Positions 1,665 to 28,399 of a stretch of DNA of 32,000 nucleotides are shown piece after piece; within the stretch, counting starts at the first letter, position 1; the number at the start of each line of letters is the position of its first letter. The stretch comes from Edaphobacter aggregans (GTDB lineage: Bacteria; Acidobacteriota; Terriglobia; Terriglobales; Acidobacteriaceae). A model generated the notes under the pieces. The model saw nothing but the letters and a program-made list of their open reading frames with translations, made no database searches and was not told the origin of the DNA. The position numbers and the translations under genes were made by a program. The DNA lies in the NCBI RefSeq assembly GCF_003945235.1, contig NZ_RSDW01000001.1, positions 5,250,001 through 5,282,000 of the forward strand, written 5' to 3'.

Positions 1665-2045
1665 ATGATCAAGTCGTTTATGCGAGCCGTGCGTGCCGCG
1701 CAGAAAGATCTGCAGGCGCTCATCCTCATCACCTTCATCGGAGCCGCTCTGTTAGCCCCCGCTGCCACCGTTGCTCAAAACCTCGGCACCACACCCGCCA
1801 CCGGCCAGGCAGTCCAGGGTCAGACCGCCTCACAGCCTGAAGGCGCATTTCTTAATCTCGTGAATTGGGTGTGCAACGTGATCTGCCCGGTGGGCGCTGG
1901 CGTCGCTGTTGTCGCCACTGTTTTGCAGTGGCGGAGCGGCCGCAGCTGGCTGCCATCGGCAATGACTGCAGGAGGTCTGATCTGCGTATCAGGCATCCTG
2001 CGGCTCATCGAGTACTTCATCTCACAAGGTCAGGCGATAGGTTGA
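1665..2045 (+). CDS. virB2: VirB2/TrbC-like pilin precursor (long leader plus one pilin module)
   Basis: The ATG at 1665 follows AAGGAGG (1651-1657); the listed start at 1620 lacks an RBS. The product has a basic N-terminus and a hydrophobic leader ending in an AxA-like site (PAATVAQ). Two hydrophobic helices follow (FLNLVNWVCNVICPVGAGVAVVATVL ... MTAGGLICVSGILRLIEYFISQG). Size and position match a T4SS pilin. Confidence 0.7.
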   Translation: MIKSFMRAVRAAQKDLQALILITFIGAALLAPAATVAQNLGTTPATGQAVQGQTASQPEGAFLNLVNWVCNVICPVGAGVAVVATVLQWRSGRSWLPSAMTAGGLICVSGILRLIEYFISQGQAIG

Positions 2046-2052
2046 GGCACAC

Positions 2053-2739
2053 ATGCAGACACCGCTGGTCTTCAGAGCGATTCTTGGTCTCCTGATGGAT
2101 TTGGCCATTCCGGCAGCGCTAGGCGCGTTTGTCATGGCTGGGATGCGACTCCGTTCCGAAGGCGGGATGAACTTTGAGGCCAGTGGTGGCTTTCTTAAAT
2201 GGCTCTTCTGGGGGTGTTTGCTAATCAGCCTTCCCGGAGTAAGTCTTTGGCTCAGTAATGAAGGCGTTCCTGGAGCATCGCAACTCACGATTGCCGGTGC
2301 CACTGGAGCTCCGTATACCCAGGGCGTCGAGAGAGTCACTAATGATTTCGTCAATAACTTTTTGCTAGCGCACCTGGTCCCGGTCGTCGCTGCGTCTCTC
2401 GTTTTCAAAGCGATCCTTGATCTAAGTCAGGGATATAGCCCACTGGCGTCGATCATCGCTGCCCTGTTTCTTCTGGGGGTCCAAGGCATTTACAACCTGG
2501 CGACAGGTAGCTGGATGCAGAGCGGTGATCAATATGGTGTGACCGACATGCTCATGCAGGCATTTGGTTATGCAGCAAATCGAATTAGTCCGATCGTCGG
2601 CGGCCTCGCGCTGTCCGGTGCGATTGTGAACTACGTGCGCCATCGCCCCTGGGGAGGTCTGGTGGCGAGCGGCCTTGGCTTCTTGAGTGTGACTGGAATC
2701 TGGGCGTTAGTAACTCATTTCGCAGGAGTCAATCTATAA
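2053..2739 (+). CDS. Polytopic membrane protein built from two or three diverged VirB2-like modules
   Basis: GAGG lies 5 nt upstream of the ATG. The C-terminal segment GYAANRISPIVGGLALSGAIVNYVRHRPWGGLVASGLGFLSVTGIWALVTHFAG aligns by eye with the pilin module NWVCNVICPVGAGVAVVATVLQWRSGRSWLPSAMTAGGLICVSGILRLIEYFISQG. The middle segment VTNDFVNNFLLAHLVPVVAASLVFKAILDLSQGY resembles LTNWVGNAVMPILAALLLAMGIYKYSRGY. At 228 aa it is about three ~76-aa modules. Confidence 0.55.
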   Translation: MQTPLVFRAILGLLMDLAIPAALGAFVMAGMRLRSEGGMNFEASGGFLKWLFWGCLLISLPGVSLWLSNEGVPGASQLTIAGATGAPYTQGVERVTNDFVNNFLLAHLVPVVAASLVFKAILDLSQGYSPLASIIAALFLLGVQGIYNLATGSWMQSGDQYGVTDMLMQAFGYAANRISPIVGGLALSGAIVNYVRHRPWGGLVASGLGFLSVTGIWALVTHFAGVNL

Positions 2740-2950
2740 AGCGAATAGTGGCATGTCTATTGGTCGCGGCTGGAATCGGCAGTGTTGGATATTGCGCGGA
2801 AATGGCGCTCGTAGCGGTGGTGACTTCGCGCTTTGACATAACAACCGACATGTCGGACGTTATCCCTGACTTAATCCCGGACTGGCATTTGAAAGCTTCG
2901 CATTTTCATAAACCCTGATTTGGATCTTGTTCTGAAATGGAGAACCGACC

Positions 2951-3205
2951 ATGAGAACGCGGGAACTGTTTCTACAGAGCCTCCTTTTTACGAGCAGTTG
3001 TCTGATGCTGCTCTTCCTTCTGTCCATCGCGGTTCATTTTCCGGTAGGTCGAGTGCTCTTCGCCGTCCTTATAGCGGTGATTTGTTTGGCTGCGGAGTGC
3101 TTTGCGCTATTTAAGCTGGGCCAGTTTCTTTGGCGATGGAGCAGCAAAGCGGCGATCGCTTTGCTACGGATTCTCCACCCGGGCCAGTCGCCTGCCACCC
3201 TTTGA
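2951..3205 (+). CDS. Small hypothetical membrane protein (two predicted TM helices)
   Basis: GGAG lies 8 nt upstream of the ATG. It has two long hydrophobic stretches and no recognisable family. Confidence 0.35.
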   Translation: MRTRELFLQSLLFTSSCLMLLFLLSIAVHFPVGRVLFAVLIAVICLAAECFALFKLGQFLWRWSSKAAIALLRILHPGQSPATL

Positions 3206-3249
3206 CAGAGAACAAGAACTGAAGCATATATGAGCGCGTGAGGCTAAGC

Positions 3250-3708
3250 ATGAACAGCGGATCCTTCGACGGTGGTCTCCTCAATCTCACCAACTGGGTT
3301 GGCAACGCGGTGATGCCCATTCTCGCCGCGCTGTTACTGGCGATGGGCATCTACAAATACTCACGTGGCTACCAGATCGATCCCTATATCGGTGGAACCA
3401 TGGCCGCACTTTCTGTCTCCGGGCTCCTGCGGCTGGCCGAAGTCTTCGCGAGCCAGGGACAGGGAGCAACGCAATATTGGTCGGCGATTCTTAGTCTCGC
3501 CAATTGGGTAGGAAACGTGATTCTGCCCGTCTACGGCGGGATCGAGATTGTACGGGCTGTGCTGGGGGTGGGAGGGTTTTTCGAGAGACTCAATATTGGT
3601 GACGACTGGGTTCGGCATTTTATCGCCGGCGGAGCATGCCTCTGTGTCTCTGGATTGATGAGGTTGATGGAACACTTCATCGCAGCCGGTACAAGTGGGG
3701 TGGCGTAA
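3250..3708 (+). CDS. Tandem-duplicated VirB2-like pilin (two modules in one polypeptide, no obvious signal peptide)
   Basis: The ATG at 3250 follows GAGG by 6 nt. The N half is LLNLTNWVGNAVMPILAALLLAMGIYKYS...GGTMAALSVSGLLRLAEVFASQG. The C half is ILSLANWVGNVILPVYGGIEIVRAVLGV...FIAGGACLCVSGLMRLMEHFIAAG. Both match the module of the 1665 gene. The gene sits immediately upstream of virB3-virB4, the canonical virB2 position. Confidence 0.7.
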   Translation: MNSGSFDGGLLNLTNWVGNAVMPILAALLLAMGIYKYSRGYQIDPYIGGTMAALSVSGLLRLAEVFASQGQGATQYWSAILSLANWVGNVILPVYGGIEIVRAVLGVGGFFERLNIGDDWVRHFIAGGACLCVSGLMRLMEHFIAAGTSGVA

Positions 3709-4049
3709 TGGCACTGAGACTGAGTCCGGTTTCGCGCAACCTGCACGCCAAGGTCACTCTGCTGGGCCTCGAGCTCGAAGACATGCTGTTTCTTGCGATG
3801 GCGTGCGCGATCGCCATGCTGGTTGGGCAATTCTTCTTCTCTGACCGTTACATGTTTTTTCTGCCGATGAACTGGTTCCTGATGCTCATGGTCCTCGTCC
3901 TCGGGGTGCCCAGTCTGATGTTGTTCAAGTATGGGAAACCTCGCGGGTATCTGCTCGACCTGGTGCTCTATTACGGACAAGCGCGCAGCTACTGTGCGCT
4001 GGCCCGCGACACGAAACTTACCAACAGCTTCCTCAAGGAGAACGAATAA
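3708..4049 (+). CDS. virB3: VirB3/TrbD-like small inner-membrane T4SS protein
   Basis: TAATG overlap with the upstream stop. The product is ~113 aa, with a conserved-looking N-terminus (RNLHAKVTLLGLELEDMLFL) followed by two hydrophobic helices. It lies directly upstream of virB4 and overlaps it by 1 nt, the established VirB3-VirB4 synteny. Confidence 0.65.
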   Translation: MALRLSPVSRNLHAKVTLLGLELEDMLFLAMACAIAMLVGQFFFSDRYMFFLPMNWFLMLMVLVLGVPSLMLFKYGKPRGYLLDLVLYYGQARSYCALARDTKLTNSFLKENE

Positions 4050-6802
4050 TGCCCAGGACGACTGCCCAGCATGAGCGCTCCCTCGAAGACCCCGCCGTCT
4101 GCGAACTGCTGAAGATTCGCGACTTTCTCGACAACGTCATGGTTCGCACCGATGGCTGCTACGTCGCCGGCTTTCGCGTGCAAGGCGCAGTAACCTATTT
4201 CTCCGATGACGATGGACGGAATGAGGCGAAAGGCGTCGTTGAATCCTTGCTCCGCGCGATGCCGGAGCAGAGCATGCGTGTGCAATTTCGCTACGAGGTG
4301 GTGGAGAGCCTGAATGGGTTGCTCGATCAGTATCGCGACGCCACGCGATCGGAGACGCCTGAGGCCAGGATTCTCGACGATCGGAGACTTGCGGCATGGG
4401 AGGAGAAAGAAAGGCTGGGCGCCTACTTGTCGCGGATATCCGGTGTGTATTTGATCTGGGATCCGGTGAAGCATAAGCGGGCGATGATCGCCAGCGGCGG
4501 GCCTCAGAGCAAGGATGACCGAAGGCAGGCTGGTGGGAGTTTCACGCTGTCTGTCGGAAAGGCAATTCAGAAGACCAAGAAAGAGCACCTGGACACTCTT
4601 GCCGAGTTTGAGTCGATCATCTCTGGTATTGAGTCGGCGATGAAGAGTGGAGGGCTCGGGCCGGAAAGAATGACCCACGGAGAGATATTTCTGGAGATCA
4701 AGCGCGCATTCAATCCGATGGACCCTGACCTCACACCGCTGAAGGAGAATATCGCTGAGACGCGCGAAATCTCCGCTCGCGAGAGGCTGGCACCGGGGAA
4801 CATCCTGGGGCAAACAGAAACCTATCTCAACATTGATGGGATGCTGTGGACGTTTATCAGCCTCAAGACGCCGCCAGATGGGACCTACCCCGGCATTCTG
4901 CGGGAGTTGATGACGATAGGTTTTCCGATCGTGATCTCGACCCAGGTAGTCGTCCCCGACCAGCGGGTGGTGCTGGATAAATACAAGAAGAAGTTTCGCA
5001 AGATGCAGGCGGCACAAAAGGACTCTAAAGGCAATCTGCGTGTAGACGTCACCGCGCAGGTCGCAACGCAGGAGCTGATACAGATCCAGCAGGAGATTAT
5101 TGCGTCGTCGGTCAAGACCGCGCGAGTGAGCGTAGTCGTTGGAGTGCATACCTCTGCCCCGGCATGGTCTGCTCAACAGTATGAGACGGCGGAGAGAGAG
5201 TTAGCCCATCGCCGACAGCAGATATTGCACGTAGTCGCTCGCATGAACGGAGCTCGCGGGTTTTCGGAGTCATTGGCGACTCGCAGGTTGTTCTTTTCGA
5301 CTCTGCCCGGGCTTGCCGAAGATGACCGCCGTGATCACGATTTGTTGACGCCCCATGCAGCAGATCTCCTGCCGGTCGAGTTGCCTTGGGCCGGAACTAC
5401 GAGGTCGCCTCTGATGCTGTTCGAAACACCCTACCGGCAACTGCTGCCATTTTCGCCGTTTGATCCGAATCTCGAAAATGCTAATGCGATCGTTGCGGCA
5501 ACTTCGGGTACAGGCAAAAGCGTACACGTTGGCAAGATGCTGCTAACGTGCGCGCGACAGGATGTTCAGGTGTCGATCATCGAACGCGGCGATAGCTACT
5601 ATCATCCCGTAACGTTCATGGGCGGCCAGATGATCACTATGTCGCTCGACAGTGAACAGACGATCAATCCGTTTGATCTTGAACCCGGTCAGGTGGAACC
5701 GTCGAACGATCATCTGGCATTTCTGAAGAACCTGACCCGCTTCATGATCGGTGACAGCGGCGAAGGCGACACGGATCTTCTCGACAATCTCATCATGAAC
5801 GCGATTCGCAAGACCTACGCCAGGGCGCAGATGCGCATTGACAATCCTATTCCGCTCTATAGCGACCTCTATGACGAACTGCAGAACTATTACGACGAAG
5901 ACAAGAATCCACGGGTGAACGAGGCTGCGCGAATTGCAGCGGCAAAGATGCGGGCGTGGGTTAACAACGGGATGTATGCACGTCTCTTCGATCGGCCGAC
6001 CACCATCGATATGTCGACGCCGTGGCTCTACTTCAACGTTGAACAACTCAAAGACGATCCGAAGCTCGAAGTCGCCATGAGCTTGCTGATTGCGTACACC
6101 ACCACGAAGCGTGCCCAGGGAAGAGCCAACAAGCGGTGCATCACCGTTCTCGATGAGTGCTGGGCCCTGTTGCAATCGCCAAGTCTCGCGCCGGTTGTCG
6201 TGCAGCTCTTCAGGACAGCCAGGAAACGCAATGCCTGTGTGTGGGGAATATCGCAGGCGGTTGAAGATTTTACCGGGACGCCGGACAAACCAAACGAATT
6301 CGGCGCCGCGATCCTTGCCACCACGGCTGTAAAGATGATCGGGCGACAGAAGGGAAATTACGACGTCTTACGTCAGTTTCTGCACTTGAACGAGACAACT
6401 CTCAATCGAGTGAAGAGTCTGGGGATGACGGAGAAGGGTAAGAAGAGCGAGTTTCTGATTGTGATCGGTGAAAAGGCGGAGACGACGCACAGCCTGTACA
6501 TCGTTCCCACACCGCTCGAATACTGGCTCCTCACAACCTATCCGCGTGAGCGTTGGTACCGGCAGTGGTGGCTTGCTACTAATCCTCATCTAAGCCTGGT
6601 CGAACGCTACGAGGAACTTGCGAACAAGTTTCCCCACGGTCTCTCCGAGCTGCCGGAGCTTCCCGAGGAACGGTCCGGCGAAGTGAGCCGGCTGGGCGAC
6701 CATGCACCCGTGGATACCGGCAAGCGAAGCCCGACGCCGAATGGCGGTGCCACGCGAAACGAAATGCCCGAGTGGTTTGTCCTCGAAGGAGCGACGGTAT
6801 GA
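4049..6802 (+). CDS. virB4: VirB4/TrbE-family T4SS ATPase
   Basis: AAGGAG RBS upstream. Walker A is AATSGTGKS and Walker B is CITVLDECWALL, followed by VWGISQAVEDF. Length (917 aa) and position are typical of VirB4. Confidence 0.93.
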   Translation: MPRTTAQHERSLEDPAVCELLKIRDFLDNVMVRTDGCYVAGFRVQGAVTYFSDDDGRNEAKGVVESLLRAMPEQSMRVQFRYEVVESLNGLLDQYRDATRSETPEARILDDRRLAAWEEKERLGAYLSRISGVYLIWDPVKHKRAMIASGGPQSKDDRRQAGGSFTLSVGKAIQKTKKEHLDTLAEFESIISGIESAMKSGGLGPERMTHGEIFLEIKRAFNPMDPDLTPLKENIAETREISARERLAPGNILGQTETYLNIDGMLWTFISLKTPPDGTYPGILRELMTIGFPIVISTQVVVPDQRVVLDKYKKKFRKMQAAQKDSKGNLRVDVTAQVATQELIQIQQEIIASSVKTARVSVVVGVHTSAPAWSAQQYETAERELAHRRQQILHVVARMNGARGFSESLATRRLFFSTLPGLAEDDRRDHDLLTPHAADLLPVELPWAGTTRSPLMLFETPYRQLLPFSPFDPNLENANAIVAATSGTGKSVHVGKMLLTCARQDVQVSIIERGDSYYHPVTFMGGQMITMSLDSEQTINPFDLEPGQVEPSNDHLAFLKNLTRFMIGDSGEGDTDLLDNLIMNAIRKTYARAQMRIDNPIPLYSDLYDELQNYYDEDKNPRVNEAARIAAAKMRAWVNNGMYARLFDRPTTIDMSTPWLYFNVEQLKDDPKLEVAMSLLIAYTTTKRAQGRANKRCITVLDECWALLQSPSLAPVVVQLFRTARKRNACVWGISQAVEDFTGTPDKPNEFGAAILATTAVKMIGRQKGNYDVLRQFLHLNETTLNRVKSLGMTEKGKKSEFLIVIGEKAETTHSLYIVPTPLEYWLLTTYPRERWYRQWWLATNPHLSLVERYEELANKFPHGLSELPELPEERSGEVSRLGDHAPVDTGKRSPTPNGGATRNEMPEWFVLEGATV

Positions 6803-7560
6803 AAGCCAAAGCAATGTCCATGGGCGCGAGCATGCTTGTGATGGTTCTGCTCCTCTTTCCGACTGGTGCGTATGCGCAGCTGGGGGGCATCTTTTCCGCG
6901 ATTTTGAGCACGATCACCGGCCCGATAGGCGGAGCACTCACGGACATCAACCAGATTCGCAGCTCGATCCTGAAGACAGAGCAACAAGTACTGTGGCCCG
7001 TCACATTGATCGCCCAGGCACAGAACTATATCTCGACGATTAAGGCCAGTTATCGCGGATGGATGAACCAGGTGTACACACTACCCGTAAATAGCGCGAA
7101 CCTGCAGATGCCTAAATCTCTGGAGTCCACCTTTCTTAGCGGGCAGATCGGGCAGATCGGAGGTTTCAGTCAGAGCTACACGTCGACCTATGGTCTACAG
7201 CCGGCCACCGGGGTCGCTCCCCAGCTCAATCTGCAGATGATGGATATTGAGGATGCCGTCGCAAAAGATGCGACGGTGCAATCGATGGCCGCCGATCAGG
7301 CAACCATGACGATGCTCCAGACAGCGCAGAGGATCGAGGATGAGGCCCAAACAACGGCGCCAGGTACGGCAGCCATGGTCGCCGCCGAGGCGAGGACCGC
7401 TGAGTTAGCGAGCCTGGCCATGCAGCACAAGCTGTTGGCCTACCAGCTGCGTGAGGCGGCGATACAACTGGGCCATCGCGGGTCCATTCTCAAGCAATCA
7501 ACTTCCAACACGCAGAACCTGAATCAACAGATTCTCAATCATCTTGGAGGCGGCCAATGA
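6799..7560 (+). CDS. VirB5/TrbJ-like secreted T4SS protein, paralog 1
   Basis: ATGA overlap with the virB4 stop. Signal peptide MKAKAMSMGASMLVMVLLLFPTGAYAQ. The mature part is Gln/Ala-rich and helical, ~250 aa, sitting between virB4 and virB6. Confidence 0.6.
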   Translation: MKAKAMSMGASMLVMVLLLFPTGAYAQLGGIFSAILSTITGPIGGALTDINQIRSSILKTEQQVLWPVTLIAQAQNYISTIKASYRGWMNQVYTLPVNSANLQMPKSLESTFLSGQIGQIGGFSQSYTSTYGLQPATGVAPQLNLQMMDIEDAVAKDATVQSMAADQATMTMLQTAQRIEDEAQTTAPGTAAMVAAEARTAELASLAMQHKLLAYQLREAAIQLGHRGSILKQSTSNTQNLNQQILNHLGGGQ

Positions 7561-8363
7561 AAACACGGCAGTTGTTTGTTCACAAACCTTTCGTGCGCCG
7601 GTTGGCCCTCAGCGGGGCCGGAGTATTGATCGTGAGTGCTGTTGCTGTGCAGCCCGCGCACTCACAGTTTGGCGTTGACATCGCGGCCATTCTCGCCGGG
7701 CTCAAGGAGATCAACAGCACTCTGAGCAGCGCCGTCGCCTCACCACTGAAAGCAATCGATCAGGTGGAACAGCAGGAGCAGCAGTTCCAACAGAACGTAC
7801 TTTATCCAATATCGGCTATAAACAGCGCCAAGCAGATGGTGACTGGGTTTACGGCCTCATTTACCAGCTTCCGTCAGCTGGGCACACTGAACATCTCAAG
7901 TGCTACGCTGCCGAACCCACAGCAGCTCGAACAACAAATGCTCTCCGGCAATCCCAACAACATCGCCGCGATCAACAGTGCTTACCAAAAGGTCTTTGCC
8001 CCGCTTCCGGCGCAGACGGCAATGCCACAAAATGTCGCATACCAAGTCGACATGGGGGATGCGCAGGCGCAGGACGCGATCAAGAAAGCAATCGAACTCG
8101 ATGCTTTTGCGGAGCGGGAGATGGAAGTTGCGCAGAAACTGAACGAGCAGATCGCTGCGTCGGCCCCGGGAACAGCACCGATCCTTGATGCCGAGGCGTC
8201 AGCGTGGGTTATACAGGCAAATGCCTACACGCAGATGGGGATGGCAGAGCTATTGCGTGTGAATAGCGCAAACCTATCGAACCGAAGCGGGGAGCTCAAA
8301 GACTCGACGACGCAGATGCAGAACCTGAATCAAAGGATCCTACAGGTTCTTACCCCTCGATGA
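7557..8363 (+). CDS. VirB5/TrbJ-like secreted T4SS protein, paralog 2
   Basis: ATGA overlap with the upstream gene. Signal peptide ends in AHSQ. Shared blocks with paralog 1: QNVLYPISAINSAKQ vs QQVLWPVTLIAQAQN, SAPGTAPILDAEA vs TAPGTAAMVAAEA, TQMQNLNQRILQVL vs TQNLNQQILNHL. Confidence 0.6.
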   Translation: MKTRQLFVHKPFVRRLALSGAGVLIVSAVAVQPAHSQFGVDIAAILAGLKEINSTLSSAVASPLKAIDQVEQQEQQFQQNVLYPISAINSAKQMVTGFTASFTSFRQLGTLNISSATLPNPQQLEQQMLSGNPNNIAAINSAYQKVFAPLPAQTAMPQNVAYQVDMGDAQAQDAIKKAIELDAFAEREMEVAQKLNEQIAASAPGTAPILDAEASAWVIQANAYTQMGMAELLRVNSANLSNRSGELKDSTTQMQNLNQRILQVLTPR

Positions 8364-8375
8364 CTGGAGCGTGCG

Positions 8376-9449
8376 ATGCAGCCCGGGATATTTGAATTTC
8401 AATCGATGCTCACGTCGGTCGTCAATGGGATCAACGGGAGCTTGCTGGCGTCGATACAGAGTGTTGCATATGTACTGATGACCATATGCCTTGTCCTTGG
8501 CATCTATGAAGCCTATGTAAGGGGCGGTGATGTTCGATCCTTAGCGGGGACGTTTTTGAAGTATGCAGTCGCGGCCTTCGTGATCGGCTACTGGCCGAAT
8601 TTCTTCTCTGATCTATTCACTGGATTTAATCAGATCGCTAACACCATCGACAGCAGTTTCGGAGCTCATGATTTGGCTACGAGTTGGGAGGCACAACTGC
8701 GAGACCTCTTCCAAGCTAATGGCTACAACAAGATATTCACATCAATTCCATGGACGCCATCAGCCCTGCTTACACTTTTGGAGATCATGCTTGCCTACGT
8801 CATTTATCCAGTTGCAGTTCAAATCTTTGCTCTGATCTATACATTCTGGGGATCATGCCTCTTTGCGATGGGGCCATTCGTGATCGCTCTGGCGCCGAGT
8901 TCGATGATCAACTCGCTTACAAAGTATTACGCGTTGAATCTTGGCGTATGGAATGCCTGGTCAATCATCTACGGCGTTTTTGGATGTTTGATTACTGCCA
9001 TTCACGCCAACGATGTTGATGCAATCCTAGCAGGCAATTTGGGTAGCTTCGGTTTTGGAGACGCTACTTTTGGATCTCTCGATGGTGGCATAGAGATGAT
9101 TGGGTTGATCAGCATTATCTACGCCATCTGCATTCTCTTGATTCCGATGGTGGCGGCCTTCATCCTTCGCGGGCAGTTTTCGGCCGTCGGTGCGGGCCTG
9201 GCCATGGCCGCTTCCAGAGTGGCGAATGGCGGAATTAGCGGAGCGAGGGCAGGCGCGGCGCTCGGGCCAGTGGGTGCGCTTGGAGGAGCAGCAGTTGGAG
9301 CAGGCCTGGGAATTATGGGCATCGGCAGCAATGCGCTGTTTGCGTCAGGGACGACAGGCGGTGGCGGTGGACAGGGTGGAAGTGGCGGCGGGACTTACAG
9401 CACTCCACCACCGAACACGCCAGCGCCGAACAATCCGACCAGAGGGTAA
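8376..9449 (+). CDS. virB6: VirB6/TrbL-like polytopic inner-membrane T4SS protein
   Basis: GGAG lies 6 nt upstream of the ATG. It has multiple TM helices, a Trp-containing central region, and a Gly-rich then Pro-rich C-terminal tail (GGGGGQGGSGGGTYSTPPPNTPAPNNP) as seen in TrbL proteins. It occupies the position after virB5. Confidence 0.7.
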   Translation: MQPGIFEFQSMLTSVVNGINGSLLASIQSVAYVLMTICLVLGIYEAYVRGGDVRSLAGTFLKYAVAAFVIGYWPNFFSDLFTGFNQIANTIDSSFGAHDLATSWEAQLRDLFQANGYNKIFTSIPWTPSALLTLLEIMLAYVIYPVAVQIFALIYTFWGSCLFAMGPFVIALAPSSMINSLTKYYALNLGVWNAWSIIYGVFGCLITAIHANDVDAILAGNLGSFGFGDATFGSLDGGIEMIGLISIIYAICILLIPMVAAFILRGQFSAVGAGLAMAASRVANGGISGARAGAALGPVGALGGAAVGAGLGIMGIGSNALFASGTTGGGGGQGGSGGGTYSTPPPNTPAPNNPTRG

Positions 9450-10772: not shown

Positions 10773-13202
10773 ATGCATAGTTATGAAGGAAATCGAATCG
10801 TGATGATCGACATCGATACCAACGGGCGGACGGAAGAGCGCATACCTGGAACCGGTCAGGAATCGTGGCTCGACACAACGCTCCTGGGTGCGATGTATCC
10901 CAATATCCACGTGGCGCTGGTCAGTGTTCCTACCGAACCTCTCGATGATTTCGAAGAGGCTAACGTGGCGAACGCGATGACCGCTGTGTCACACAATGGC
11001 ATTGCCTACAAAATGGTCGGAGCATCAGGATCGGCCAAAAACGGCAAATACTACTACTGTGACGCTGCACATGAGCCTTTGATCGCCAGACGCTTCCAGC
11101 AATGGCCCGAGGCGGCAATCACGTACTTCGGGATCCTGGTGTCCGGCTGCAAAGTCGTACGTAAGGAACCGGAGGCTCGCGTGTCGGTGGTCAGGGATCT
11201 TGAACTTGGAACGAACGATTGCCGCGGCTGGATACGGAGAAGTCTCTTCAGGAAGCTCGCGCTTCCGGAAGGACGTTTCTACCAATTCCGGCTGGCATTC
11301 GGGGAGACCCAAGCGAAAGGCAGCTTCAAAGTCATGGCTGACGACGTTGCCGACGCTCTTGGCGTAGACATCATCGTTCCGGAGAGTTCGATCAAACCCA
11401 GTATGAAGATGCCGTCCGTCCTGGCCAGTTTCGTTGGCCTGGGCTCGCGCACCTTCAAGAGCGAGATCGTTCTGGGAATCCGTGAAATCTCGCGGCCTCT
11501 TCAGTTCGAATCAAGCTATACCGTACTGCAACATGCACCGGTGGAGTCGATCGAGACCGAGATCGTTCCGCAGGCCGTGGAGATGATCGAAACGGTCAAA
11601 ACGGCTTGGAGGGAAGGGAATCACCGCAAGGTGGTTGAGCTCATTGGGCAGGAGGTCCGCCAGAATGACAACTCAGAGGGCGAAGAGTTCCAAAGGGTTG
11701 TCGAAGCGGCGCTCCTGGCTGATGGTTCGGGCGAGATTACACGCCATCCCTACATCCATACGCAGCTCAGTCGTCTGATGGCGAGATGGGCCTACAAGCT
11801 GATGACCGGTGGAGGCATCGAACTACCCGCGTTCGCGCTGGCAGACGATGGCTACCTGGTTCTTCAGAGTGGCAAGGTCCTGTCGCGCGCTGACTGGATG
11901 CCGCTGCGCGCAGCCATTACAACCGTTCCGTCTCAATCAGGCCTATGTGTGCGCTACCCCGTACGCATGAAGGAAGACCTGCTCCCACTTGAGCATCTCA
12001 AAGGGGAAAGGTTGACGGACCACCTGATTGAGAAGCATGGACTCCATCCTGACGTTGCAGCTATGGTTGTGAATGAGCAATTGACGCTTGAAGGGACCTA
12101 TACACTTCATTCGGAGACCGCTAAACGCAATGGCGGTGATTACGACTTTGACTGGGTGTGTGTCATCGATGCAACGCGGTTCCCACGTTTCGTGGAAAGC
12201 CGTTTTCGTATGGATCGCGAACACGAGGTCACGAAGACGAAGGCTGGTAGAGCCAAGTCTCCGTGGTTTTCCCTCGAATTCGTTGCTCTCAAGTCGCGTG
12301 GGAATCAGATCGGCGTCATTACCGACCTGATGAGTTCCTGCGTCGCCAGCGGCCGAGACGACTTGCTCTATGAGCTGGTCGGCGAGTTGCAGCTGGAGAT
12401 CGATTCGCTCAAACACAATACGAATGCCGATCGGAGCAAACTGCGAGGAATCCGTCAGCAGGTTCTTCCGGCGCCCTGGCTTGCTTTGAAAGAGGCCAAG
12501 GCGATCAACGCTCAGGACTTACCACTCTCGCTCGAGATTCTGCCGACGGATCGTATCGGTCGGCTCTACAACATTCTTCGTAAACATATCGAAGAACTGA
12601 TGGAGAAGCCGTTCCCGATCGAGCAGTTCCGCGGCCTGATCACGGGCAACACCGTATCCAACGTCATGTTTGAAGAAGCACGCCTGATCAACACCGTGTA
12701 TGCAGCTGGACACGGCATGATTCAGGGAAAACTCACCCAGGAGAAGAAGGCACATGATCAGGCGACTGTACGAGTGGCCGAGGCCATCCGGTCAGGAAAC
12801 CGGCAGGGTATCGCCGCAGAAAGACGGGCATTCGCAAAAGCGAAGGCTCGTTATCGCCGCGCTCAAGAGCAAGCCCGGGAGACCTCCGCTACCTTGCAGT
12901 CGATCGTTCGTAGTTGGGGCGACGGCAAGGAAATGTACCGGGTGGGCTGGTGCCAGGCGCTCCACACGGTGGTCTCTCGCGGTAAAGGGATGGGATCGAT
13001 TCTGTTCCATGCCTTTCCCCAGGAGGTCGTTGATTCGATTGCAGCCCGCACCGGCGGAATTCGTACGCAAGTCGCGCCTTCCGGAAGAGGAGTGCGTGTT
13101 GCGGTTGAGGGCGACTGCTTGTTCTCTGTTCGTCCGGGCAGGAAGGAGTTCCTGCTTCGGCTGGACCGGGGAGCGAACCGAATCGTTGGGACCGCAAGTT
13201 AA
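10773..13202 (+). CDS. Large protein with an ordered motif series resembling eukaryote-type RNA-dependent RNA polymerases (QDE-1/RDR family, double-psi beta-barrel; DxDxD catalytic loop GGDYDFD)
   Basis: GGAG lies 7 nt upstream of the ATG. Motifs occur in the same order as recalled RDR motifs. TNDCRGWIRRSLFRKL resembles SDGIGKIS..LA. RFYQFRLAFGETQAKGSFKV resembles SAFQIRYGGYKGVV. IIVPESSIKPSMKM resembles LR.SM.KF. IELPAFALADDGYLVLQSGKV resembles RIPV...GV.DE.G.L..GQV. CVRYPVRMKEDLLPLEHL resembles KNP..HPGD.R.LEAV. AKRNGGDYDFDWVCVID resembles SGGDLDGD.YFV.WD. The family assignment is from memory, not from a search. Confidence 0.6.
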   Translation: MHSYEGNRIVMIDIDTNGRTEERIPGTGQESWLDTTLLGAMYPNIHVALVSVPTEPLDDFEEANVANAMTAVSHNGIAYKMVGASGSAKNGKYYYCDAAHEPLIARRFQQWPEAAITYFGILVSGCKVVRKEPEARVSVVRDLELGTNDCRGWIRRSLFRKLALPEGRFYQFRLAFGETQAKGSFKVMADDVADALGVDIIVPESSIKPSMKMPSVLASFVGLGSRTFKSEIVLGIREISRPLQFESSYTVLQHAPVESIETEIVPQAVEMIETVKTAWREGNHRKVVELIGQEVRQNDNSEGEEFQRVVEAALLADGSGEITRHPYIHTQLSRLMARWAYKLMTGGGIELPAFALADDGYLVLQSGKVLSRADWMPLRAAITTVPSQSGLCVRYPVRMKEDLLPLEHLKGERLTDHLIEKHGLHPDVAAMVVNEQLTLEGTYTLHSETAKRNGGDYDFDWVCVIDATRFPRFVESRFRMDREHEVTKTKAGRAKSPWFSLEFVALKSRGNQIGVITDLMSSCVASGRDDLLYELVGELQLEIDSLKHNTNADRSKLRGIRQQVLPAPWLALKEAKAINAQDLPLSLEILPTDRIGRLYNILRKHIEELMEKPFPIEQFRGLITGNTVSNVMFEEARLINTVYAAGHGMIQGKLTQEKKAHDQATVRVAEAIRSGNRQGIAAERRAFAKAKARYRRAQEQARETSATLQSIVRSWGDGKEMYRVGWCQALHTVVSRGKGMGSILFHAFPQEVVDSIAARTGGIRTQVAPSGRGVRVAVEGDCLFSVRPGRKEFLLRLDRGANRIVGTAS

Positions 13203-13559: not shown

Positions 13560-13572
13560 ATACAACCTGTGC

Positions 13573-13602
13573 GAAGAGGATGGCCTTCAAGGCATCCTCT
13601 TC
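13573..13602 (+). other. Strong inverted repeat between the small ORF and virB9
   Basis: GAAGAGGATGGCCTT / AAGGCATCCTCTTC gives ~12-14 bp of pairing with one bulged G. There is no downstream T-tract. It lies 14 nt after the stop at 13559 and ends 8 nt before the virB9 RBS (AAGGAGAG, 13611-13618). Confidence 0.6.
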
Positions 13603-13625
13603 CCAGATTCAAGGAGAGCGCCGTC

Positions 13626-14501
13626 ATGCTCATTCAGAAAAATGTTATTGTGCTTAGCATTCTGGGCGGGAGCATGGCGTTTGCCCAGAACATCGTTCAC
13701 CAGCCCGTCAACCCTAACGGCGTTACCCCGGTTCACACGTCGCTCGATCACATCAGCATCCTCCAACTCCCCGAAAAGATCACTCGCGTTGCAGCGGGAA
13801 GCGATGCGATGCAGATCGAATGGCACGATAACAGTGTCTTCATCAAGCCTCTGAAGCAGGGGCAGGCGACCAATCTCATGGTTTGGACCGAGCACCAGTT
13901 CTCAACCTATGAGCTGGAGGCACCAGGTGACGTTCACAGCATGTCCTTTGTCATTGATGAAACAGCAGCCCTGGGTGCTCAAAGCAGTGGGCATTCCGTG
14001 GCAGCAGCGGCTGCAACTCCGTCGCCCCAGGAGATCCAGCGAATAACAGATTCTTCCATCGGGTCTACGCTGCTCGAGGTCACACCGGTCGTCGCTCGCG
14101 GAGTGCGTCCCGTCAAAGACCATGTCAGTGTTCTCATCAAGGAAGTGGTTCGCGACAAGAATTCTCTCTATGTACGGTTTGCCGTCAGCAATACCGGATC
14201 GCATCCATACCGAATTGTCTCGCCCAATGTCTTCACGATCGTTCCAACGAAAAACGCCGAGCTTCTCGCTGGATTGAAGAATCTTCAGATCCCGGAACAG
14301 GGCACCTATCAATTTCAGTCCGGTGAGACCATACAGGTCACGGTGAGGGGTACGGCACTTCCCGAGAAAGATGTGCAACCAGGCGCAACGGTCGAAGGAG
14401 TATTGGCTCTTGAGCCTGCCGACGTGCAAAAGGCCGGGGTGTACGAATTCATCTTCGGGAATGACGGGACCCATCGCATTCTGGCCACGGCGGTGCTCTG
14501 A
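13626..14501 (+). CDS. virB9: VirB9/TrbG/CagX-like periplasmic/outer-membrane T4SS core protein
   Basis: The ATG at 13626 follows AAGGAGAG. Signal peptide MLIQKNVIVLSILGGSMAFAQ. The N-domain matches the recalled VirB9 pattern (TSLDHISILQLPEKITRVAAGSDAMQIEWHDNSVFIKPLKQGQATNLMVWTEHQFSTYELE). The C-terminus is a beta-rich domain. Confidence 0.7.
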   Translation: MLIQKNVIVLSILGGSMAFAQNIVHQPVNPNGVTPVHTSLDHISILQLPEKITRVAAGSDAMQIEWHDNSVFIKPLKQGQATNLMVWTEHQFSTYELEAPGDVHSMSFVIDETAALGAQSSGHSVAAAAATPSPQEIQRITDSSIGSTLLEVTPVVARGVRPVKDHVSVLIKEVVRDKNSLYVRFAVSNTGSHPYRIVSPNVFTIVPTKNAELLAGLKNLQIPEQGTYQFQSGETIQVTVRGTALPEKDVQPGATVEGVLALEPADVQKAGVYEFIFGNDGTHRILATAVL

Positions 14502-20748: not shown

Positions 20749-21588
20749 TTATTGATGCATATCCGTGTCAACGTCGTCCGTCTGCCCGAACGAAGGGAGG
20801 TAGCGGCCGAAGTTCAATTCGAAGTCGCTCCGAACGCCGTAACCGATATTACGAATCTTGGCACGGCGTGCCTGCGCACTGGGCAAGGCCAACAGTGGAA
20901 AGAACAGGTCGATGCTCGACTGAAGCTCGGCCGCTGTCGGCGTGCCGAACCGATTGACCTGGGCCTTCGCCGCGGCCAGCGTTTCGCGGTCGAAGGAGGC
21001 CAGACGCCGGCCGAGCGCATCGACAAACGAGTCGAGGTCGCCATCGTCCAGCGTGCGGTTCACCCAGCCATAGCGCTCGGCGATATCGGCATCGAAATCG
21101 TCGCCGCTAAGCACGATCTCAAGTGCGCGCGAGCGGCCAACTATGCGCGGGAGCCATTCCAGCGCTCCGCCGCCCGGGACCAGTCCGACGCCAACCTCGG
21201 GGTTGCCGAACACGGCGCTTTGCCGGCTGGCGAAGCGCATGTCGCAGGCCAGCACGAACTCGTTACCGATGCCGCGCGTGCGGCCGCGAATCTTGGCGAT
21301 GCTCACGACTGGCACGGACGAGAGGCGCAGCACAAAGTCGCGCCAAAGGCCCAGCACCTCTGGCCGTTCAGCCGCCTTGGCTACGTCGAGATGGGCGACG
21401 AAAAAATCCGGATTCGCCGACTGGAACACTACGACCTTCACGGACGGGTCCGCCTCAAGGTCGGTCATTAGCGCTCCCAATTCGACGATCGTTGTGGGAA
21501 CAAACATGTTGATCGGGGGGTTGTTGAAGGTGATCGTACACAGACCCGGATAGGTGCGGTCGGTGTTGAACTGCGAGGGGTCAGGCAT
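20749..21588 (-). CDS. Enoyl-CoA hydratase/isomerase (crotonase) family protein
   Basis: AGGAG RBS upstream. Crotonase-fold motifs are present: ITFNNPPINMF, VVVFQSANPDFFVAHLD, GRTRGIGNEFVLACDMRFAS, FGNPEVGVGLVPGGG. Confidence 0.8.
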   Translation of the reverse strand: MPDPSQFNTDRTYPGLCTITFNNPPINMFVPTTIVELGALMTDLEADPSVKVVVFQSANPDFFVAHLDVAKAAERPEVLGLWRDFVLRLSSVPVVSIAKIRGRTRGIGNEFVLACDMRFASRQSAVFGNPEVGVGLVPGGGALEWLPRIVGRSRALEIVLSGDDFDADIAERYGWVNRTLDDGDLDSFVDALGRRLASFDRETLAAAKAQVNRFGTPTAAELQSSIDLFFPLLALPSAQARRAKIRNIGYGVRSDFELNFGRYLPSFGQTDDVDTDMHQ

Positions 21589-21631
21589 GGTGCATCTCCT
21601 ACGTTGCCGGTATAGATCCCGCCTTCTTCAG

Positions 21632-22393
21632 CTAACCGGCGACGAACTGCTGCCCGCCGTCGATGTCGTAGGTCGCGCCGGTGAGGGCTGTGTTGGTCAT
21701 GATGTGTACGGCGAGCGCGGCGACGTCGGCCGGCAAGACGACGCGCCGGATGGGAAGCGTGGCGCGAAGCTGATTGCGGCGGTTGTCGAGCTCATCGCCG
21801 AGGAGCGATGCCGACAACGGTGTATCGACAAAGCCGGCGGCGATAAGGTTGACTCGGACAGGCGCGAGTTCGAGCGCGAGGCTGGCGGTGAGAGCAGGGA
21901 GCGCAGCGGTGACTGTCGGCACGATCCCCATTCCGCTGCCTTGGCGGCGTCCACCGGTGCCGCCCATGAACAGGAGCGTGCCTCCGGGTCTTACCTTGTG
22001 CGCGGCGCTGCGGGCGACCTGGAGCATTTGCAAGAGGTGCGTGTCGAGGCCGCGGCGCGCCTGCTCCATGTCCATGTCGAGAAGGCGCCCGTAATGCGGC
22101 TGTCCGGCTGTCACCATCACATGATCGATCGTGCCGGGCAGGCCACCGAAGAATCGTTCGATCGCAGCAGGATCGTTGGCGTCGAAGGCCGCTGTACTCA
22201 GCGGTTCGAGCTCACCAGCGGCGAGCTCGAGGCGTTCGGGATTCCGGGCGGTGAGGATCAGCGTGGCCCCCTCAGCGCGTGCTCGCCTGGCCGTTTCGAG
22301 CCCAATGCCCGCGCTGCCGCCGACTACAACGACAGTCTGCCCGAGGAGTTCCGGTTCACGCCGGACGGGAACGGTGGTTGTTGCAGTGCTCAT
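21632..22393 (-). CDS. Short-chain dehydrogenase/reductase (SDR) family oxidoreductase
   Basis: I chose the ATG at 22393 (MSTATT...) because GGAGG lies 4 nt upstream of it. The Rossmann motif is VVVVGGSAGIG. The C-terminal IDGG is typical of SDRs. Confidence 0.8.
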   Translation of the reverse strand: MSTATTTVPVRREPELLGQTVVVVGGSAGIGLETARRARAEGATLILTARNPERLELAAGELEPLSTAAFDANDPAAIERFFGGLPGTIDHVMVTAGQPHYGRLLDMDMEQARRGLDTHLLQMLQVARSAAHKVRPGGTLLFMGGTGGRRQGSGMGIVPTVTAALPALTASLALELAPVRVNLIAAGFVDTPLSASLLGDELDNRRNQLRATLPIRRVVLPADVAALAVHIMTNTALTGATYDIDGGQQFVAG

Positions 22394-22463
22394 GATTCCT
22401 CCAGGAACCCGCGATCGAGAGCATCGACGTCCCACCGGGCGATGTCAGCCTCGGTGTGGTCGT

Positions 22464-23150
22464 TTATTGGGGTAACTCCTTGCCAGACTGCTCCGCGATC
22501 ATGTACGCGGCGTACCAGTCTGGCCAGTCCTCGTCGCGATGCCCAAGGAGTTTCTCGTGCTCGCCGTGGGCGGCCTCTGCACGCCGAAACGCGCTCGCCA
22601 GATCGTTCGCCGATGCGAAGGTGGTCGCCGTGTCGTCGATGCGGCCAGGAAGCCGCGTCGTGATTTCCTGGAACAGCCAGCCGTTCCCGTCCGGATCGCG
22701 GAACGAGGCGAATGATCGATAGCTGCCATGCGCTGGATCCGGACCGCTGACTCGGATCCGTCCGAACAGGTAGGGCTCGTCCGTGCCAGCGTAGACGTCG
22801 CCGGCACCATGAAACACCTCGCTGATCTCGACGCCGCGACGAAGCAAATTGTTGCGGGCGGCCTCAATGTCGGAGACGATCAGATAAAGACCCTGAGTGG
22901 AGCCTGGAGCCGCCGCGGTGACGTTCTTGCCGAAGATGACTGAGCACCCAGAGCCAGGCGGCGTTAATTGAATCACGCGATAGTCCTTACCGTTGTCATA
23001 GTCCGCGTCGAGTCGCCACCCGAGCCTCGCATAGAATTCCTTCGCACGGTCGACATCCGAGACGGGGATAACGACGATTTCGAACTTCATGTCGGCGCTC
23101 GCCTGGCTCGTGGCGTCGCTAACCTGGACTTCCGACGTCGCATTTGCCAT
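22464..23150 (-). CDS. VOC (glyoxalase/bleomycin-resistance/dioxygenase) family protein
   Basis: The ATG at 23150 follows AAGGAGGAG. Paired beta-alpha-beta-beta-beta module features are present (FEIVVIPVSDVDRAKEFYARLGW ... ASFRDPDGNGWLFQE). Confidence 0.7.
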   Translation of the reverse strand: MANATSEVQVSDATSQASADMKFEIVVIPVSDVDRAKEFYARLGWRLDADYDNGKDYRVIQLTPPGSGCSVIFGKNVTAAAPGSTQGLYLIVSDIEAARNNLLRRGVEISEVFHGAGDVYAGTDEPYLFGRIRVSGPDPAHGSYRSFASFRDPDGNGWLFQEITTRLPGRIDDTATTFASANDLASAFRRAEAAHGEHEKLLGHRDEDWPDWYAAYMIAEQSGKELPQ

Positions 23151-24950: not shown

Positions 24951-25958
24951 ATGTCGTCATTGGAGACTTCAGTGTGGAAACCACCTCGCCCGCGCGCGGA
25001 AATATTGCCAGCGACTGTTGAGCAAGCGGCGGAATATATGACGTGGTTCGTCAATCGACGGGCCTACACCCGGCAAACCGATCGGTCGGATGAAAAGTCG
25101 GGAAAGTACTTCTTCTACCAGGCGCGGGATCGTCAGACAAAAGAGCGGCTGGCGCTCGACGAGCAGGTTGTGCAGAAGCACCTGGCTGGAGAACAAACCA
25201 TCGGGCTCTATGCCATCAACCCCATGACGCAATGCTCAAAATGGGTCGCGATCGACGCCGATTACGAGGGCGCCTACCGCGATCTGCGGACCCTCAAATG
25301 GGAGCTTGAACAGGATGGAGTTCACGCCATCGTGGAGATGTCCCGCCGGGGTGCGCACCTGTGGATTCTCTGCGCCGAGCCCCTGCCGGCAAGACTTTGC
25401 CGTATCTATATATATAACCTCGCCCTCCGGCTGGATGTTCCTATCAAAGGGGCATTCAAGCAGGTGGACGGGATCGAGGTCTTTCCCCGCCAGGACGAAT
25501 TGGGAGCTGACGAGTTTGGGAATGCGATACGAGCTCCCCTTGGCATCCATCGAGCCAACATGCACCGCTATTGGTTTGAGGATGCTGCAAGCGGTCTCGG
25601 GGAACAACTCGAATACCTCCGTTCGGTAAAGCGCCTCACCGGGTCGGAACTTGAGAGCTTTACTGATGGCCTGTCGATTCCCGAATCGGTCACCAGCCGG
25701 CCGGTGATCGAGCGCCCGCAGTATGACACCAGCCAGGGCGGCTTTCAGATCCTGCAGCATGTCAAGGTTCGAGCCAAGCGGAGCGGCAACTACTGGGCGC
25801 AATGCCCGTCCTGCGCCAGCCAGGGCCGGGACCGGGCGATGGACAATCTAGCCATTTCGATTGCAGACCCTCGCTATTACAAATGCTGGGCCGGATGCAC
25901 CCGGGAGATGATCCGCGAGGCGTTGGGTCAGCCCATCCCCATACGCAGACACCGATAA
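24951..25958 (+). CDS. Archaeo-eukaryotic primase (AEP) superfamily primase-polymerase with a C-terminal zinc ribbon
   Basis: GGAGG lies 7 nt upstream of the ATG. AEP motifs are present: HLAGEQTIGLYAINP, WVAIDADYEG (DxD), EMSRRGAHLWIL (sGxGxH) and EVFPRQDELGADEFGNAIRAPLGIH. The C-terminus is CPSCASQGRDRAMDNLAISIADPRYYKCWAGC. Confidence 0.75.
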   Translation: MSSLETSVWKPPRPRAEILPATVEQAAEYMTWFVNRRAYTRQTDRSDEKSGKYFFYQARDRQTKERLALDEQVVQKHLAGEQTIGLYAINPMTQCSKWVAIDADYEGAYRDLRTLKWELEQDGVHAIVEMSRRGAHLWILCAEPLPARLCRIYIYNLALRLDVPIKGAFKQVDGIEVFPRQDELGADEFGNAIRAPLGIHRANMHRYWFEDAASGLGEQLEYLRSVKRLTGSELESFTDGLSIPESVTSRPVIERPQYDTSQGGFQILQHVKVRAKRSGNYWAQCPSCASQGRDRAMDNLAISIADPRYYKCWAGCTREMIREALGQPIPIRRHR

Positions 25959-27487: not shown

Positions 27488-28399
27488 ATGGAAACAAATA
27501 CGCAAGAGATTGCTGACGTGTTGCTGCGTCTCCAGGAGCCATTCGACCCAGATGAGGTCAAATGGCTTGTGGCCGCTACGTCCAGAGACGGCCGCAAAGG
27601 TCGTGTCACTCCGTATGCCAATCCCCGTGCTTACACGGACAGGCTGAACGACGTTCTCACTGCGAGTGGATGGACCCGGCAATACGCAATCCACACCATT
27701 TCGCCTGTAACCAGGCTCAAGAAAGACAAGGCGATTCAGACGGGAAAGGTGCTGGTGACTTGCACCGTGACAATCGCTGGCATCGGGAGCCACAGCGGCA
27801 GCGGCGAGGAGTGGGCCGATGACGAGAACGCAATGACCAGCGCGGAGGCTCAGGCCTTCAAACGTGCGTGCTCGTGCTTCGGACTCGGCCGGTACTTCTA
27901 CAACTTTGCCGAGATGTGGGTTGATCTGAACGAGAATAAGCAGCCCACGAGGGTTCCAAGCCTACCAGCCTGGGCGCTTCCGAAGAACCGAGCGTCGGCA
28001 CCGCAGCAGAATGCAAGCGGGAAGCCGGAGCAGCGGCCAAGATCCTCCTCGGCTCTTGTAAAGGGTCCTCTTGATGCCAGCGTCACCGCAAAGATCGAGG
28101 GGCATCGCCAGGAACTTGGCCAGGCTCTCTATCAGAGCATTCTGACGATGGTTGCGCAGGTGCGTTCCGCTCGCGATATCCCCATCCAGCACCTACAACA
28201 GAGCGTGCTGAACTGGATGGAGAGCGCCACACGGGGAATGGCTCAAGTACGGAAGATTGCAGCCGAGATCCCGGAGACAACGTTCTACTCCATACTCGAT
28301 CGTCACGGTGTCCAGTCTCTTGCCGAGGTGCCAAATTTTGGTGTTCTCAAGAGGCTGGTAGACGAGGTGCAGGCCGCTCCGCACGAGTCGGCGGCCTGA
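27488..28399 (+). CDS. Rad52/Rad22-type single-strand annealing protein with a long C-terminal extension
   Basis: The N-terminal ~150 aa match recalled Rad52-family blocks: FDPDEVKW..., VTPYANPRAYTDRLNDVLTASGW, and SAEAQAFKRACSCFGLGRYFYNF. The remaining ~150 aa have no recognised family. Confidence 0.7.
   Translation: METNTQEIADVLLRLQEPFDPDEVKWLVAATSRDGRKGRVTPYANPRAYTDRLNDVLTASGWTRQYAIHTISPVTRLKKDKAIQTGKVLVTCTVTIAGIGSHSGSGEEWADDENAMTSAEAQAFKRACSCFGLGRYFYNFAEMWVDLNENKQPTRVPSLPAWALPKNRASAPQQNASGKPEQRPRSSSALVKGPLDASVTAKIEGHRQELGQALYQSILTMVAQVRSARDIPIQHLQQSVLNWMESATRGMAQVRKIAAEIPETTFYSILDRHGVQSLAEVPNFGVLKRLVDEVQAAPHESAA

Follow-up and report, generated by a model that had tools for sequence, protein, structure and literature searches.

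A conserved trio of single and tandem-fused helical hairpin proteins in the pilin slot of a conjugative type IV secretion system of Terriglobia

Introduction

How VirB2-type pilins leave the inner membrane and nucleate at the VirB3/VirB4/VirB6 base is an open mechanistic question in type IV secretion systems (T4SS). In systems of the mating-pair formation (MPF) class MPF_T, virB2, virB3 and virB4 follow each other in a conserved core order (PMC3548315). Paralogues of VirB2 have been described as separate genes, i.e., in the arrays of Patescibacteria (2-11 pilin genes, with copies ~25% identical on average), as the TrwL copies of the Bartonella Trw system, and as the virB2 paralogues of Anaplasma. 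CONJScan lists two VirB2-type profiles each for MPF_G and MPF_I. Here we analyze a 32,000-nt stretch of a contig of Edaphobacter aggregans (hereafter the window, within which all positions are counted). Three adjacent plus-strand genes of a conjugative T4SS, which we call A, B and C, had been proposed in a sequence-only reading to carry a repeatedly copied VirB2-type pilin module.

Our results show that the three genes form a conserved set of paralogues derived from one ancestral helix-loop-helix membrane hairpin. This trio is located in a divergent, Trb-ordered conjugative T4SS that resides on chromosomal elements of Terriglobia (Acidobacteriota). The repeat and the fusions hold up, and the family name given to the module does not.

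Five homologous hairpins in three genes

Gene A (1665-2045, + strand) encodes 126 aa, gene B (2053-2739, +) 228 aa and gene C (3250-3708, +) 152 aa, and all three are open reading frames (ORFs) with a Shine-Dalgarno-like motif. Five homologous helix-loop-helix modules of ~65 aa are distributed over them, with a single one in A and a pair in each of B and C. The module of A spans residues 58-124 (nt 1836-2036, +) and is matched by the module hidden Markov model (HMM) with an independent E-value (i-E) of 1.6e-25. C consists of module C1 (3250-3471, +; residues 1-74; i-E 1.8e-24), which starts without a leader, and module C2 including the stop codon (3472-3708, +; residues 75-152; i-E 1.9e-24). 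In B, the modules are B2 (2329-2529, +; residues 93-159) and B3 including the stop codon (2530-2739, +; residues 160-228). The distribution first proposed, with one module in A, two in C and at least two in B, is thus confirmed, and the module HMM found no further module-bearing ORF in the window.

The repeat is seen in several types of comparison. With BLASTP, the single module of A aligns with both halves of C (E 9e-18 and 3e-11), and B aligns with C over two consecutive modules (E 4e-6). An HMM seeded from A, C1 and C2 of the window alone matched B twice in its first round (i-E 4e-4 and 5e-5) when run on the 12,956 ORFs of the related loci described below. Family profiles of A, C1, C2, B2 and B3 aligned against each other with hhalign gave E from 1e-22 to 5e-6 and probabilities of 87-99%. 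Among these comparisons, A matched C1 at E 2.5e-20 and C2 at E 6e-22, B3 matched A at 2.5e-14 and C1 at 1.4e-12, and B2 matched A, C1, C2 and B3 at 1e-7 to 5e-6. Pairwise identity among the modules is 12-51%, with A, C1 and C2 being 37-41% identical. Three two-helix controls from the same loci, i.e., residues 1-92 of B, the small protein encoded by orf84 and the VirB3-like protein, were compared with every module by hhalign and gave only E 0.06-0.9 and probabilities below 4%. As these controls fail, the similarity among the modules reflects specific homology and not hydrophobic composition.

Each module was expected to form two helices, and this is what the AlphaFold models of B and C show, in agreement with hydropathy and charge. 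The model of C (predicted local distance difference test, pLDDT, 76) has four helices, at residues 6-38 and 44-68 in C1 and at 73-108 and 119-149 in C2. The model of B (pLDDT 67) has three hairpins, with helices at 87-125 and 131-150 for B2 and at 162-195 and 201-224 for B3. The remaining hairpin of B, at residues 1-92 (2053-2328, +), has helices at 5-36 and 46-69 together with an exposed loop, and is a sixth helix-loop-helix in structural terms. The initial count had been five to six copies; five are borne out by the family profiles, whereas this sixth one did not match the modules in the hhalign comparison above. The corresponding N-terminal region of two divergent B proteins gave weak module matches (i-E 5e-4 and 3e-3 in a search of eight sequences). 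The N-terminal hairpin of B is possibly a third copy of the module, at best a degenerate one.

Conservation of the fused genes

To describe the distribution of the trio we used 80 related loci from species-representative genomes, out of 207 such places in the genome collection. Consecutive plus-strand ORFs with one, two and two modules (1-2-2) were found in 69 of the 80 loci, or 70 when the window is counted, and the exceptions are contig ends or isolated split ORFs. Even the divergent metagenome loci L152 and L155 keep the 1-2-2 pattern and the order A, B, an optional small gene, C, VirB3-like and VirB4. The protein lengths are equally stable. The database holds 277 homologues of C. Among the 120 matches listed, whose identities range between 49% and 95%, 56 have a length of exactly 152 aa. 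Homologues of B have 226-228 aa and those of A 125-126 aa. Against close relatives, the ratio of nonsynonymous to synonymous substitution rates (dN/dS) is lowest for B (0.04), followed by C (0.06) and A (0.11), and all three genes are under strong purifying selection.

These data also bear on whether the fused ORFs could be an artefact of assembly, frameshift or gene calling that merged single-module genes. Split ORFs do occur in three of the 80 loci (L030, L044 and L066), as such an artefact might suggest. However, hundreds of independent assemblies give identical fused lengths, as do the 69 species-level genomes with the full pattern, and the strong purifying selection extends across the junctions. 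The artefact explanation is therefore refuted, and the tandem-fused ORFs are true genes, as the sequence-only reading had assumed.

The loci come almost wholly from metagenome-assembled genomes of Terriglobia/Acidobacteriota, and many of them lie on contigs that are hundreds of kilobases to megabases long, pointing to integrative conjugative elements. A search of 1.84 billion representative sequences with the module profile returned just 508 proteins at E<=1e-3, so the module family is narrow. Each of the best 150 of these 508 matches is a member of these three protein families or a fragment of one, and they provide no bridge from the module profile to annotated pilins. That concatenated modules are unusual agrees with the literature searched, in which we came across no account of tandem units fused covalently in a pilin slot, although this is not proof of absence. 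As far as this literature goes, the fused 1-2-2 arrangement is both conserved and undescribed.

Gene order around the trio

The trio directly precedes the virB3- and virB4-like genes, in the order A, B, (orf84), C, VirB3-like, VirB4, both in the window and in the 69 loci with the full pattern. As this is the core order of Trb/VirB systems, the trio fills the virB2/trbC slot, and C lies in the virB2 position as was first suggested. The VirB3-like gene (3708-4049, +) encodes 113 aa with two adjacent hydrophobic segments and is assigned by position and size only, its top family match being TIGR03750 at E 0.012. Its ORF is kept in 78 of 81 sources, i.e., the 80 loci and the window. The next gene (4049-6802, +) encodes a VirB4/TraC-type ATPase (Pfam P-loop_TraG 1.8e-23, NCBIfam TraC-F-type 9e-55, VirB4_CagE 1.8e-44). 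The stop codon of C overlaps the start of the VirB3-like gene (TAATG), and the stop of the latter overlaps the start of VirB4. Between B and C, orf84 (2951-3205, +) encodes 84 aa, of which residues 6-57 form a single long hydrophobic stretch that we read as two helices. By hhalign, this small protein is unrelated to the modules (E 0.09-0.9). It has a homologue in 47 of the 81 sources and none in the far loci, where B and C abut; the divergent locus L152 has a 96-aa gene in its place. The smaller orf56 (2748-2918) was rejected as a gene, being present in only five very close loci besides the window.

Across the region the order is SLT transglycosylase, VirB9-like, VirB10-like, A, B, C, VirB3-like, VirB4, two secreted paralogues, a polytopic protein, VirB8-like, VirB9-like and coupling protein (T4CP). 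Upstream of A, the window has the TrbI/VirB10-like gene (72-1079; Pfam E 7e-8). The SLT transglycosylase and the first VirB9/CagX-like gene (1529-2509 of that locus), both upstream of VirB10-like, are seen in the relative L024. Downstream of VirB4, two secreted, helical, Gln-rich paralogues (6772-7560 and 7557-8363; 31% identical, E 2e-27) occupy the trbJ/virB5 position. They are followed by a polytopic protein of 357 aa with a glycine-rich tail (8376-9449), which has no profile match and takes the trbL position (VirB6-like), and then by the VirB8-like gene. Further genes without assignment, among them one for a soluble protein of 809 aa (10773-13202), lie between the VirB8-like gene and the second CagX/VirB9-like gene (13569-14501), after which come the coupling protein and a Replic_Relax protein. 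We also considered B as the VirB6/TrbL equivalent, and rejected this on the grounds that B has no Pfam or NCBIfam match and that the 357-aa protein is a separate candidate in the trbL position. Likewise, the modules were rejected as VirB3/TrbD proteins, the VirB3-like family giving E 0.08-0.9 against every module in hhalign.

Several other features of this transfer region were observed. The two secreted paralogues, neither of which has a Pfam match, are a second duplicated component in the operon, and the system appears to have two CagX/VirB9-like genes, one upstream of VirB10-like (as in L024) and one before the coupling protein. The 809-aa protein has no Pfam or PHROGs match and no meaningful PDB sequence match (E > 0.6). 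The 585-nt gap from the VirB10-like gene to gene A contains three direct repeats of ~38 nt (1208-1406), each with the core GTACTTYACTTTT after an A-rich run and with start-to-start spacings of 80 and 81 nt. Among the related loci, only the five closest (L001-L005) share this core upstream of gene A. These repeats are possibly operator or regulator binding sites for an A-B-C-virB3-virB4 transcription unit.

Proposed roles of A, B and C

From this context we tentatively propose, at somewhat less than an even chance, that A is an exported, leader-cleaved, polymerising pilin and that B and C are uncleaved inner-membrane derivatives at the assembly site. A would be made with a long Sec-type leader that is cut after Ala37, and it is the best candidate for the polymerising subunit. 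B, with three hairpins and six helices, and C, with two hairpins and four helices, would have arisen by internal duplication of a leaderless unit, and would insert uncleaved with both ends in the periplasm. They may then stay in the inner membrane as pilin-like pseudo-oligomers that work with VirB3, VirB4 and the VirB6-like protein, collect A subunits and nucleate the filament or channel base. We favor this division of labour because only A has a leader, because the fused lengths of B and C are fixed, because the loops of C2 and B have diverged and because B has lost an Arg/Glu motif that the other modules keep. The overlaps between the genes for C, VirB3-like and VirB4 are a further, weak argument.

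The leader of A (1665-1775, +) has 37 aa with a basic n-region, a hydrophobic core (h-region) and an AxA-like boundary, TVA↓Q. In agreement with the sequence-only reading, A is leader-bearing and C has no visible signal peptide; B has no leader either. The leader is barely conserved (13% identity in far loci), and conservation starts exactly at an invariant QNLG right after a small residue (A, G or S). Since conservation begins at this A↓QNLG boundary, the leader is most likely cut by signal peptidase after Ala37, giving a predicted mature protein of 89 aa that starts with QNLG (1776-2045, +). This mature form would consist of one module preceded by a hydrophilic N-extension of 23 residues (1776-1844, residues 38-60; QNLG..P....AVQGQ.AAQPEG). 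The extension is the best-conserved segment of the trio, with 77% identity in far loci compared to 52% for the A module, and the more divergent relative L155 does not have its motif.

Within the modules, helix 1 carries (L/F)LNL.NWVGN and an almost invariant Pro. The loop is short in most of them, with SGRS or KYSRGY in A and C1, RHRPW in B3 and DLSQGYSP in B2. The A loop has an invariant Gly-Arg, and that of B2 has no basic residue. Helix 2 is amphipathic and ends with SG..RL.E.F in A, C1 and C2 (motif SGxxRLxE), in which the Arg and Glu are invariant; both are lost in B. According to hydropathy and charge, the basic residues sit in the intra-hairpin loops, which is consistent with periplasmic N- and C-termini and cytoplasmic loops. 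The modules share with TrbC/VirB2 pilins the traits of two hydrophobic helices and a short loop with a basic residue, as seen in AlphaFold models and hydropathy, with the loops of C2 and B2 as exceptions. The linker between the modules of C, SQGQGAT, resembles the C-terminal tail of A, SQGQAIG. As the linker is close to an A tail that runs on into the next module, C appears to stem from the head-to-tail duplication of an A-like unit without a leader.

The same features bear on two other ways in which fused hairpins could serve a pilus. One is a heteropolymeric pilus, in which A, C and possibly B would polymerise and the fused proteins would enter the helical lattice as ready-made dimers or trimers of neighbouring protomers joined via surface-exposed termini. 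Both termini lie on the same, outer face in solved VirB2-type pili, which is counted for this idea, as are the resemblance of the C linker to the A tail and the positions that A, C1 and C2 keep in common (NW.GN, P and SG..RL.E). However, B and C lack a leader, the Arg/Glu motif is gone from B, and the loop of C2 (RLNIGDDW.RH) is 10 residues longer, acidic and highly conserved, in contrast to the short basic loop of pilins. Taken together, we regard a heteropolymer as rather unlikely. The other is that B and C are polyprotein precursors which are cut between the modules into single hairpin pilins, e.g., by signal peptidase or a TraF-like maturase. Maturation of TrbC and VirB2 does involve several cleavages, and VFA↓SQ after helix 2 of C1 in the window resembles the TVA↓QN site of A. 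Across the C family, however, the -3 and -1 positions are not kept as small residues (EAFVGT, EVITQQ, ETMTQQ), and the linker shows the conservation of a short segment of fixed length, not that of a processing site. Furthermore, neither the window nor the 4 kb upstream of A in L024 yielded an S26/TraF-type peptidase. Processing into monomers is highly improbable on these grounds.

The proposal of A as pilin, with B and C as its inner-membrane derivatives, also has a number of results against it, most of which concern the pilin assignment. Public databases label A, B and C all as hypothetical. The TrbC/VirB2 family PF04956 was absent at E<=1 for the full A, B and C proteins, and it was still absent when 18 A-family members, 26 diverse modules and seven family consensus sequences were scanned at E<=10. 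Scans with NCBIfam and PHROGs gave nothing relevant to pilins. In hhalign, the modules gave E 0.011-0.46 with probabilities below 4% against a VirB2 profile (44 distinct Agrobacterium-type sequences from 61 metagenome loci), and E 0.05-0.3 with probabilities of 1% or less against a TrbC profile (10 diverse annotated plasmid proteins). PDB sequence-profile searches with the C-family and A-family alignments returned spurious matches only, and Foldseek of the whole C and B models against the PDB gave nothing below E 0.4. In addition, the strong conservation of the N-extension of A is unusual, being unexpected for an exposed pilin terminus. The gene overlaps are a weak argument because canonical virB2 too is closely followed by virB3, and the features that suggest a platform role for B and C are their missing leader, fixed fused length and gene coupling.

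The few signals in the direction of pilins do not change this. PF18895 (T4SS_pilin) was sub-threshold in six of 18 A-family members, with 10-16 bits (best 16.4, E 0.0098) compared to a gathering score of 26.6 bits, and gave none for C modules, B modules or consensus sequences. We treat these matches as noise because spurious families (E1-E2_ATPase, 7TMR-DISM and MerC) score at the same level in A-family members and because the consensus sequences give none. In the best VirB2 alignment, the module Pro and the loop Gly-Arg line up with the GP and FGR of VirB2, at a score barely above the controls. When the 12,956 ORFs were searched with a VirB2 HMM, the A-family ranked first at E 0.4-5 with VirB3-like ORFs about equal, and this was not counted as evidence. 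A TrbC HMM gave no enrichment of the A-family in the same ORFs, and a scan of viral contigs for TrbC relatives found none. The positive control worked, as VirB2 matched TrbC at a probability of 77% and E 2e-5. Membership in the TrbC/VirB2 family is thus supported by none of the sequence or fold tests run, and the label "VirB2-type" that had been given to the module is not borne out. This lack of detectable similarity does not prove that the families are unrelated. A pilin role for the module is suggested by the slot, the size, the hairpin topology and the predicted leader of A.

These negative tests, obtained with a working control, also support a role other than that of a pilin. The trio might be a lineage-specific inner-membrane family that, e.g., forms part of a channel or stator, stabilises VirB3/VirB4 or acts in entry exclusion, in a system where a VirB2-type pilus is missing or an unrecognised pilin is used. 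The narrowness of the family and the amphipathic helix 2 with its invariant Arg and Glu point the same way. On the other hand, the trio fits VirB2 in its slot, size and hairpin topology, as does A with its long, predicted-cleavable leader, and no other VirB2 or pilin candidate was seen among the window genes scanned with Pfam or NCBIfam. Conjugative pilin families are moreover known to be mutually undetectable by sequence, and CONJScan uses separate profiles per MPF class. We consider a non-pilin role unlikely, though with an appreciable chance of being right.

Returning to A as the polymerising pilin and B and C as its partners at the assembly site, a more specific version can be formulated. 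In it, B and C would be pseudo-oligomers derived from pilins and permanent members of the inner-membrane machinery. With a single A they have five homologous hairpins (1+2+2), which might prearrange a single layer of a five-start VirB2-type pilus and serve as a genetically encoded template for the polymerisation of free A subunits. This version is distinctly improbable; if true, nature would have solved pilus nucleation with a "fused pilin", as is described for no T4SS.

Over >200 species-level genomes, this T4SS lineage has fixed in its pilin slot a leader-bearing hairpin protein together with fused relatives of two and three hairpins. Should the family prove to be related to pilins, the arrangement could bear on pilus nucleation and is a natural experiment, as the fused units constrain the possible subunit-subunit contacts. 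If the module is unrelated to pilins, the trio instead defines a new family of T4SS inner-membrane components. The results also flag a widespread, unannotated conjugation-system family in soil Acidobacteria.

Other features of the window

Downstream of the transfer region there are accessory genes, including an archaeo-eukaryotic primase domain of the TOTE conflict-system type (24951-25958, E 2e-27), a Rad52/22-family protein (27488-28399, E 5e-10) and an SRAP/SOS-response peptidase (29243-29962, E 1e-68). The stretch at 21000-23000 has a G+C content of 64%, compared to ~56% elsewhere, and its - strand encodes enoyl-CoA hydratase and glyoxalase-family proteins. This stretch may be cargo or host DNA, or mark a boundary of the element. 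Rfam and tRNA scans of the window gave no match.

Comparison with known systems

By context, and with no homology demonstrated, the trio may be assigned to a known kind of arrangement, namely the expansion of paralogues in the pilin slot. The closest single-gene counterpart is TrbC/VirB2 (PF04956; IncP TrbC and Agrobacterium VirB2). As with these proteins, the trio lies directly upstream of virB3- and virB4-like genes in a Trb-like order, and its units are small, with two hydrophobic helices and a short loop with Gly-Arg. The long leader of A (37 aa), which ends in a small residue followed by Gln, is a further similarity. Unlike TrbC/VirB2, there are three genes and not one, two of them being leaderless covalent tandem repeats with four and six helices, and mature A would have the highly conserved hydrophilic N-extension of 23 aa. 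Nor was any profile, profile-profile or fold similarity to TrbC/VirB2 detectable in the tests above.

The MPF_G proteins Tfc9/Tfc10, IceB2 and Orf67001 of ICEclc, and TraQ/TraR of MPF_I are also similar in that more than one small hydrophobic protein lies between the outer-membrane-complex genes and virB3/virB4. The assignment of these pairs rests, as here, on weak similarity and context, and no internal tandem repeats are described for them in the accounts consulted. The MPF_G models TIGR03745 and TIGR03758 were not among the matches when A, B and C were scanned with NCBIfam at E<=1.

The arrays of VirB2 paralogues resemble the trio in having several diverged pilin-slot paralogues near virB4 with low identity, and the 12-51% between the trio modules is of this kind. 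However, the array members are single-unit genes, each with a leader, that vary in number and are read as surface or antigenic variation. In the trio, A is the only single-unit, leader-bearing ORF, and B and C are fused multi-unit proteins in 69 of the 80 loci, which sets the trio apart from such arrays. Collectively, the trio differs from the paralogue arrays in its fixed number and order (1-2-2), in the fusion of its units into polytopic proteins, in the loss of the leader from the fused copies, and in being under purifying selection.

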